64,000 bases of DNA from Escherichia coli (lineage in GTDB: Bacteria > Pseudomonadota > Gammaproteobacteria > Enterobacterales > Enterobacteriaceae), in assembly GCF_044324785.1 (NCBI RefSeq), contig NZ_CP172127.1; one strand, written 5' to 3'. Below, one piece after another: positions 60,430-61,341 of the stretch. Below the pieces are notes generated by a model. The model had not been told where the DNA came from, ran no database searches, and saw only the letters and a list, made by a program, of their open reading frames with translations. Position 1 is the stretch's first letter, and each line of letters begins with the position of its first letter. Position numbers and translations under genes: made by a program.

Positions 60430-61341
60430 TCATACTGGTAACGCTAGTTGCTTTTTTTTAAACGCCTCAATGGTCGATTTATATTTCTCGCAAATCTTTT
60501 CTTCGGTAATATCACTATCTGCGGCCAGATTCGCACTTACTATCGCATCCACTTGTTCGGCTAATTCGACTTGTTGGCAACCTGCATTAACCAGAAAATT
60601 ATAAATAAGAGAGTAATCTTCATCCTCCAAAACAACAGAGGAACCATTACGAAAACGTTCATCCCCTCCATAGATTTTAAGCGCAAAGCCCAAAGATTCT
60701 ATGACTATGGCAAAATTATCATCAATTATTTTTTCGTAAATATACCATCCATCGCATTCTTTAATTCCACCTCCTGGAATTTGGAGGTCAAATTTACCCC
60801 GTTTTAATTTACTTACTATATCATCCAATACAGCATAACCTAAAGACACGTCACCAAACGCCTGGCGAATATAACCTTTAATCCTTTCCGGTATGTCAGA
60901 CTGTTTTTTCTGCAGAATATCCCAGGCATACAATCTTCTGTTTTGTTCTAACGGAAACTCGCGGTTTTTGAAATCCATGAATGAGTTATACTCATTTATT
61001 GTTATGGGAATTTCTTCGTATTCAAATCCACTGCCTCGCAATGTCATTATATATTCGGCACCGTTATCTTTAAGGCTGAAACTGATAAGAAACTTATCCA
61101 TGGCGTTAACAGTTTCATTTTTTGATGAAAGTACCTGATAACTATTTTTATCAATCTGAGTTGCGCAACGAAAGAACTCCCGCAAAGTTAACAGGCTATC
61201 ATAATTCGAAATCCAATCTTTTTTATTAAATGCATGCTGGATATTGTTAAAAAAATTGTTTGAATGTGTTTTTGTATGCGATGATTTTACGAATAACTCC
61301 ACCGCACCAATAAAATTATTGTGTCTGATCCTGGGTAACAT
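60430..61341 (-). CDS. ytfI: Uncharacterised AT-rich protein
   Basis: 303-aa ORF as given in the track; no recognisable motif; start not verified. Confidence 0.75.
   Translation of the reverse strand: MLPRIRHNNFIGAVELFVKSSHTKTHSNNFFNNIQHAFNKKDWISNYDSLLTLREFFRCATQIDKNSYQVLSSKNETVNAMDKFLISFSLKDNGAEYIMTLRGSGFEYEEIPITINEYNSFMDFKNREFPLEQNRRLYAWDILQKKQSDIPERIKGYIRQAFGDVSLGYAVLDDIVSKLKRGKFDLQIPGGGIKECDGWYIYEKIIDDNFAIVIESLGFALKIYGGDERFRNGSSVVLEDEDYSLIYNFLVNAGCQQVELAEQVDAIVSANLAADSDITEEKICEKYKSTIEAFKKKQLALPV

Follow-up and report, generated by a model that had tools for sequence, protein, structure and literature searches.

The subject of this analysis is ytfI, a single AT-rich gene lying between two core genes of Escherichia coli in the window, i.e. 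the whole stretch of 64,000 nucleotides that was analysed. Its coding sequence occupies positions 60430 to 61341 on the minus strand and forms an intact open reading frame in the program-made ORF list, with an ATG start, 303 codons, and a TGA stop; shorter ORFs overlap it on the opposite strand. The core flanks are ytfJ (59786..60340, plus strand), a member of the YtfJ_HI0045 family, and cysQ (61553..62293, minus strand), which encodes a 3'(2'),5'-bisphosphate nucleotidase. Further out, ytfK and paeA/ytfL are found on one side and cpdB on the other.

The closest known counterpart is the uncharacterized YtfI protein of E. coli K-12 (b4215). The protein encoded in the window shares 96% amino acid identity with it over 100% of the query (312-aa cluster P0001), the K-12 gene has the same position between cysQ and ytfJ and the same relative strand, and the two islets are 96.7% identical in DNA. 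Both the full-length identity and the place between cysQ and ytfJ assign the gene to the YtfI orthologue group. The window allele is 9 residues shorter at its C terminus (303 instead of 312 aa), and direct comparison with the K-12 sequence showed that a TTA>TGA change cuts off these last 9 residues. In close relatives, the matching ORF carries the RefSeq name "ytfI: protein YtfI" or "hypothetical protein", the latter being the usual annotation within the haplogroup of the window, which comprises 402 complete genomes at at least 99% identity. The gene is thus an accessory gene known from annotation and publications, and one of the unexplained genes of E. coli K-12. What is added here is its exact insertion site, polarity, age, selection regime, and population frequencies, which is a refinement and not a new kind of system.

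The composition of ytfI sets it apart from its surroundings. Its GC content is 0.360 (GC3 0.329), compared with 0.521 for ytfJ, 0.544 for cysQ, and 0.505 for the whole window. Only 3.3% of 912-bp windows are equally AT-rich (z = -2.9 for ytfI), and GC drops further, to 0.28, in the 211 bp that precede the ORF. A first, sequence-only reading of this DNA had described the gene as AT-rich relative to cysQ and ytfJ, and these values agree with it.

Comparison of the window with a ytfI-less E. coli genome (L001) and with outgroups delimits an islet of about 1.2 kb (approximately 60341-61552; GC 0.347). This islet is self-contained: upstream region, ribosome-binding site, coding sequence, and terminator are all its own. 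The upstream non-coding part (61342..61552, minus strand; the 211 bp mentioned above) can be aligned collinearly among four lineages that carry ytfI, at 83-98% identity. A Shine-Dalgarno AAGG, read from the sequence, is located at 61352-61349, 7 nt ahead of the ytfI ATG. A promoter scan returned a sigma-70-like TTGATA-17-GATATT with a TG extension at 61411-61383 (minus strand). Since sigma-70-like matches upstream of ytfI numbered 5 against 4.6 expected from shuffled sequences, i.e. without any excess, this element is to be regarded as a candidate promoter.

Two stem-loops lie within the islet, one near each end. Immediately 3' of the cysQ stop codon, the inverted repeat I2 (61505..61547, minus strand) forms a structure with a predicted folding energy of -19.6 kcal/mol (z = -5.4). 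It contains about 34 consecutive columns that are invariant in the four lineages, and is more conserved than the ytfI coding sequence itself. It probably serves as the 3' terminator or stabilizer of cysQ and is absent from the ancestral overlapping arrangement described below. Because it lies inside the islet, cysQ of ytfI-bearing strains has a 3' structure that is missing in empty-site strains. The other structure, between the convergent ytfI and ytfJ genes (60372..60402), is the perfect 10-bp inverted repeat I13, TTCCCCTATC-N11-GATAGGGGAA. It has a fold z-score of -3.5 on the minus strand and is kept in two divergent lineages (L004 and L011). As it is followed on the ytfI strand by the U-rich run AAAAUUAUUUUUG, this hairpin is likely to be the intrinsic terminator of ytfI; it possibly also terminates transcription from the ytfJ side, and would then be bidirectional. 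No RNA family of Rfam was matched within the islet. Just beyond it, in the cysQ-cpdB intergenic region, the ES239 sRNA (RF02756) is matched over its full length at 62360-62482 on the minus strand (157 bits, E = 7e-32).

The ends of the islet are best read against genomes that lack it. There, ytfJ (185 aa) and cysQ run into each other at their 3' ends, with an overlap of 11 bp, TTAATAAATAG. The right junction of the islet, TTAGTAAATAG (61553..61563), is a retained copy of this ancestral overlap that now serves cysQ alone. At the left junction (60325..60343, plus strand), ytfJ has a derived 3' end, CAA AAG TTG CTC AAA TAA, so that YtfJ ends in LLQKLLK* and is 184 aa long. Judged by its bases, this left junction resembles a second, degenerate copy of the overlap. 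The resemblance is suggestive only: it may reflect a duplication of the insertion target, or survivorship, given that both genes needed their ends. This possible degenerate duplication of the 11-bp target is the sole trace of the kind left by mobile elements. The islet carries no transposase or integrase gene, ytfI being its single gene. Its ends form no convincing terminal repeats, the longest end-to-end inverted match being 22 nt at 73% identity, and direct matches of 10-11 nt within it are at chance level for AT-rich DNA. With neither mobility genes, nor terminal inverted repeats, nor phage or plasmid copies (see below), the islet lacks the defining features of a mobile element.

The distribution of occupied and empty sites was surveyed in 5,426 complete E. 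coli genomes, in 5,420 of which the ytfJ..cysQ region was matched. The islet, counted as present when at least 80% of the query was covered, is found in 1,610 of the 5,426 genomes, and a direct junction search detected the uninterrupted empty junction in 3,795. The site is thus essentially two-state in E. coli, with about 30% of genomes occupied and 70% empty. Two further genomes labelled E. coli carry a different gene, of the type seen in Escherichia albertii, at the same site (see below). All genomes of Salmonella enterica, Escherichia marmotae, and Escherichia fergusonii that were examined are empty, and in the loci fetched from them ytfJ (3501-4058) and cysQ (4048-4788) share the 11-bp overlap. 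The sequence-only reading had proposed that such islets could host strain-specific or conditionally expressed functions. The presence/absence survey that it suggested across Enterobacteriaceae fits this proposal, with patchy occurrence in E. coli, precise absence in most of its genomes, and no family member beyond Escherichia and Shigella; in K-12, the segment is moreover bound by H-NS (PMC4720273).

The polarity of the change can be read from the end of YtfJ. In nearly all genera returned, YtfJ has 185 aa and ends in LLHKLLxx. E. coli genomes with an empty site have the outgroup state, with 185 aa and the end LLHKLINK, whereas the derived 184-aa form ending in LLQKLLK* occurs in every ytfI-bearing haplotype of the three lineages examined. 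Comparison of the two states shows, at the level of sequence, an islet inserted into the 11-bp overlap of the convergent core genes ytfJ and cysQ. Since Salmonella, E. marmotae, and E. fergusonii share the same empty site, the same comparison shows the empty overlapping arrangement as the ancestral one in Enterobacteriaceae. The opposite polarity, in which Escherichia would ancestrally have carried ytfI, with precise losses in the other species and in most E. coli, could in principle explain many of the absences, ytfI being older than E. coli (see below). However, loss mediated by the short flanking repeats would yield a YtfJ ending in LLQKLLK* together with a cysQ lacking its last residue, and cannot restore the ancestral ends. 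The empty E. coli alleles instead keep the His codon, the 185-aa length, the 11-bp overlap, and an intact cysQ end. Secondary deletion is thus highly improbable, and the empty alleles are more likely to be a retained ancestral haplotype that has spread by homologous recombination.

The same overlap has received another occupant in E. albertii, where a 385-aa pentapeptide-repeat gene is located at the ytfJ/cysQ junction (L018 4292-5449, plus strand; also L003 2733-3890, plus strand). Like the ytfI islet, it is a single AT-rich gene, it occupies this 11-bp overlap, and TTAATAAATAG has been kept on the cysQ side. It differs from ytfI in being on the opposite strand, in its length of 385 aa, and in matching the Pfam Pentapeptide repeats. 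The two proteins are unrelated (BLASTP E = 0.57), and the E. albertii gene therefore represents an independent insertion, the overlap having been hit at least twice. The pentapeptide protein resembles the type III effectors SopA, PipB, and PipB2 weakly and through the repeats only. As regards the identity of the carriers, NCBI names the YtfJ of the L018 contig as that of E. albertii. Contig L003 (NZ_CP144930.1, strain SCPM-O-B-9504) is labelled E. coli; because its cysQ is 99.7% identical to the L018 copy (and about 88% identical to that of E. coli), it is probably a mislabelled E. albertii. An identical pentapeptide-repeat gene is carried by NZ_CP144926.1 (strain SCPM-O-B-7615), also labelled E. 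coli. Both RefSeq "Escherichia coli" genomes, NZ_CP144930.1 and NZ_CP144926.1, thus appear to be E. albertii.

An AT-rich islet within a conserved core is usually taken as a recent, strain-specific horizontal insert. Such a reading would account for a GC content of 0.36 against 0.505 in the window, for the presence of the islet in only about 30% of E. coli genomes, and for the empty sites in all examined genomes of Salmonella, E. marmotae, and E. fergusonii. The divergence of ytfI among lineages speaks against it. Besides the K-12-like allele, two more distant variants were found, with 78% (P0008, locus L004) and 70% (P0010, loci L008 and L011) protein identity to the window. In both, the site, orientation, and junctions are all as in the window. 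The cysQ, ytfJ, paeA, and cpdB genes of L004 are 94-97% identical to those of the window, and the flanks of L011/L008 are 88-93% identical. These three loci, all labelled E. coli, probably come from cryptic Escherichia lineages; L011 (NZ_JAATUR010000006.1, strain SCPM-O-B-8794) is a GTDB species representative. Relative to the window, the dS of ytfI and of the adjacent cysQ is 0.10 and 0.105, respectively, for the K-12-like L002, 0.36 and 0.25 for L004, and 0.72 and 0.73 for L008/L011. The dS of ytfI thus roughly tracks that of cysQ, from which it follows that the islet has diverged in place. Its junctions are identical even where the flanks are only 88-93% identical.

The search for vehicles of a recent transfer gave no better support. 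No match to ytfI was found among 50,697 phage records, and its "plasmid" matches are limited to records of 0.66-4.9 Mb that resemble chromosomal DNA. The chromosomal ytfI is present on the corresponding PLSDB records (NZ_CP141089.1, NZ_CP134663.1, AP026530.1, and NZ_CP128951.1), of 4.9 Mb or 655 kb, which are probably chromosomes filed under a wrong label or replicons derived from a chromosome. A recent arrival of the islet is accordingly hardly credible. As to composition, the GC content of ytfI is 0.34-0.36 in all lineages, without any gain. Since the gene has co-diverged with its flanks and has nevertheless stayed AT-rich, its low GC is no sign of recent arrival; more generally, a low GC content maintained throughout a long residence shows that such a composition need not mean recent acquisition. 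The description of ytfI as a compositionally foreign islet in the conserved core thus has to be divided: the islet is confirmed, but "foreign" cannot be taken as recent, as the islet has co-diverged across lineages about 10% apart in DNA.

As judged from these divergences, ytfI is older than E. coli. Because the junctions and the derived LLQKLLK* end match in E. coli, L004, and L011/L008, a single old event is the most likely origin, i.e. one insertion in an ancestor that E. coli shares with two or more sister lineages, a reconstruction built on three lineages. It is also possible that the whole islet haplotype has moved between lineages by homologous recombination. By the same comparison, the presence/absence polymorphism of ytfI has persisted since the insertion, the gene diverging roughly in step with its flanks.

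Another reading is that the islet is a functionless remnant, i.e. an H-NS-silenced relic that drifts neutrally and is being slowly lost. Several observations would suit such a relic. The gene is missing from 70% of genomes and has no known deletion phenotype. Frameshifted and C-terminally truncated alleles are common, the latter exemplified by the window itself. An example of the former is cluster P0007, representing 729 database sequences, in which YtfI starts at residue 53, because a 1-nt deletion (T7>T6, codons 29-31) frameshifts ytfI. The affected homopolymer is an A7 run on the plus strand at 61249-61255 of the window (T7 in ytfI), which is T6 in the P0007/L019 allele and may be prone to slippage that recurs or reverts. 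The absence of ytfI from 70% of E. coli, the frameshifted allele, and the 9-residue loss together indicate that the gene is dispensable and decaying in places. Finally, its dN/dS is 3-30 times that of its neighbours.

Against neutral drift, however, all comparisons give a dN/dS significantly below 1. It amounts to 0.21 (95% CI 0.09-0.45) between L002 and the window, 0.36 (0.24-0.55) for L004, and 0.26 (0.17-0.38) for L008/L011, i.e. 0.21-0.36 overall with upper 95% limits of at most 0.56, the neighbours having values of 0.01-0.15. Within the protein, codons 1-150, the N-terminal half, have a dN/dS of 0.05-0.16, and codons 121-300 one of 0.3-0.65. In addition, the reading frame is kept at a divergence at which neutral drift would have destroyed it: in substitution-only simulations at 22% nucleotide divergence, none of 5000 kept the ytfI ORF open, all 5000 having gained stop codons. 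A dN/dS below 1 and an ORF intact at 22% divergence together make ytfI a real gene under purifying selection. At the codon level, this selection is shown to be relaxed but clear, the N-terminal half being constrained and the C-terminal half variable. That the islet is a mere neutral relic is therefore quite unlikely.

Whatever the protein does, it does not belong to a described family. The sequence-only reading had seen no recognizable domain, and profile searches bear this out, with no match in Pfam-A or NCBIfam at E<=10 and no PDB sequence below the best profile match at E = 0.91. YtfI is thus a member of no curated or housekeeping family in Pfam or NCBIfam. That reading had also named membership in a housekeeping family, or universal conservation with ordinary composition, as outcomes that would speak against it, and neither was found. 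A clustered database of 5.8 billion proteins returned 18 matches to YtfI, and all those with a source name come from Escherichia or Shigella. Searching 1.84 billion representatives with a profile yielded only fragments of the YtfI family and one artefact, a 1441-aa tandem-repeat protein (P0034), which was rejected as a homologue because its score sums over 13 repeats. Among GTDB species representatives, YtfI occurs only in L011 and on one 1.5-kb contig of a Collinsella metagenome-assembled genome. This contig (L010, JAIJJM010000759.1, "Collinsella sp.", 1501 bp) encodes YtfI at 95% identity and is probably contaminating E. coli DNA in the Collinsella bin. With no homologue found outside the Escherichia/Shigella clade, ytfI is an orphan gene.

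Among defence and phage resources, PADLOC (PADLOC-DB v2) gave a match to Cas6b (16.9 bits, E = 0.001, residues 112-152) and PHROGs a match to phrog_3250, a family of unknown function (19.1 bits). Both fall in one stretch rich in N, K, I, and F, are probably compositional, and were not retained as relatives. Neither cas genes nor other defence genes lie near ytfI, which therefore does not correspond to a known anti-phage system.

The predicted properties of YtfI are those of a soluble protein. It is acidic (pI 5.3) and hydrophilic, with a maximal 19-residue hydropathy of 1.28 and no transmembrane stretch, and no signal peptide was seen on reading its N terminus. Structure prediction was less informative. 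AlphaFold2 gave a pLDDT of 41.4 for the full-length protein, using a 7-sequence alignment, and of 42.7 for the N-terminal 165 residues. Foldseek comparison of the low-confidence full-length model with the PDB gave a best E-value of 0.17, a TM-score below 0.2, and scattered matches to Whirly, PUR-alpha, and coat proteins. Both AlphaFold2 runs being unreliable (pLDDT 41-43), the picture of a two-domain alpha/beta protein is weak.

The ytfI segment has been described as a K-12-specific insertion bound by H-NS, as determined by ChAP-seq (Higashi et al. 2016; PMC4720273, S10 Fig). The binding depends on the insertion and spreads to cpdB, cysQ, ytfJ, and ytfK, and the segment is missing from strains SE11 and SE15 (PMC4720273). 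Being AT-rich relative to its host and absent from related genomes, the islet resembles xenogeneically silenced horizontal DNA in composition and distribution. The high-affinity H-NS motif TCGATAAATT (Lang-type) is not enriched in it: with up to 2 mismatches allowed, two matches were found, a count reached or exceeded by 31% of tiles of the same size. The ytfI islet thus shares with other H-NS-bound horizontal islets an AT-rich composition within a GC-normal core and H-NS occupancy in K-12 (PMC4720273). It differs from them in consisting of a single gene, without mobility gene, tRNA, or att site, in having gained no GC despite its long residence, and in the lack of enrichment for the TCGATAAATT-type motif.

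A second point of comparison is provided by the ORFans of E. coli. From the work of Daubin and Ochman in 2004, these are said to be taxonomically restricted, short, AT-rich, and fast-evolving genes. Shared with ytfI are the AT-richness, the lack of homologues outside the genus, the raised dN/dS, and the patchy presence. In contrast to typical ORFans, ytfI is longer, demonstrably old, and without detected phage similarity.

The literature on ytfI is otherwise limited to large-scale data, and among the full texts found that mention the gene, none addresses the function of YtfI. An overexpression screen of the ASKA collection yielded 23 clones able to grow at 3 mM NaOCl, i.e. 3 times the HOCl MIC, one of them carrying ytfI (PMC8228696), and the gene is also listed among multiple-stress-responding genes (PMC9501238). 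It has further been reported as a sigma-32 ChIP-chip target, a disputed assignment for which an artefactual origin has been argued. On this basis, YtfI might be thought to protect the cell against hypochlorite or other oxidants. However, the overexpression screen returned many unrelated positives, YtfI has just four cysteines (1.3%), and no redox or other domain model matched it. A role in stress tolerance is thus decidedly doubtful.

Taken together, we consider it probable that the ytfI islet is an old, genus-restricted, H-NS-silenced, and polymorphic orphan unit, selected where present and inserted most likely once. An orphan islet would have entered the 11-bp ytfJ/cysQ overlap, most likely a single time, in the ancestor of E. 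coli and its sister lineages, and would then have persisted as a presence/absence polymorphism, with about 30% of E. coli carrying it at present. H-NS would normally silence ytfI, and YtfI would act only when silencing is relieved. Its product would be a soluble cytoplasmic protein, perhaps with an alpha/beta fold.

What such a protein could do is a matter of conjecture. Orphan status, silencing, an old polymorphism, and a fast-evolving C-terminal half best suit a conditionally useful role in conflict or stress. The leading guess is a single-gene phage-defence or abortive-infection-like function, although we hold it to be unlikely. A more elaborate version, which we regard as rather unlikely, is that the polymorphism predates E. 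coli and is kept by frequency-dependent selection. YtfI would then be a new single-protein conflict module, for instance an abortive-infection or phage-sensing defence protein, silenced by H-NS until needed, with the N-terminal half as effector and the C-terminal half as specificity part. If a function were to be found, for instance in defence or stress tolerance, YtfI would become the first member of a new protein family.

The islet is not the only AT-rich place in the window. The sequence-only reading had grouped it with low-GC yjgL and yjgN genes at 18166-19362. Two other low-GC genes are indeed present, but the yjgL-like ORF lies outside that range. The first of them, at 18166-19389 (minus strand, GC 0.37), encodes a yjgN-like DUF898 membrane protein. 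The second, at 21840-23717 (minus strand, 625 aa, GC 0.32), is a yjgL-like orphan with a sub-threshold match to the SopA-like central domain (19 bits); a possible paralogy with YtfI was rejected, the two proteins being unrelated. These two genes are the only other ORFs of the window of at least 120 codons, counted from the first ATG, with a GC content below 0.43.
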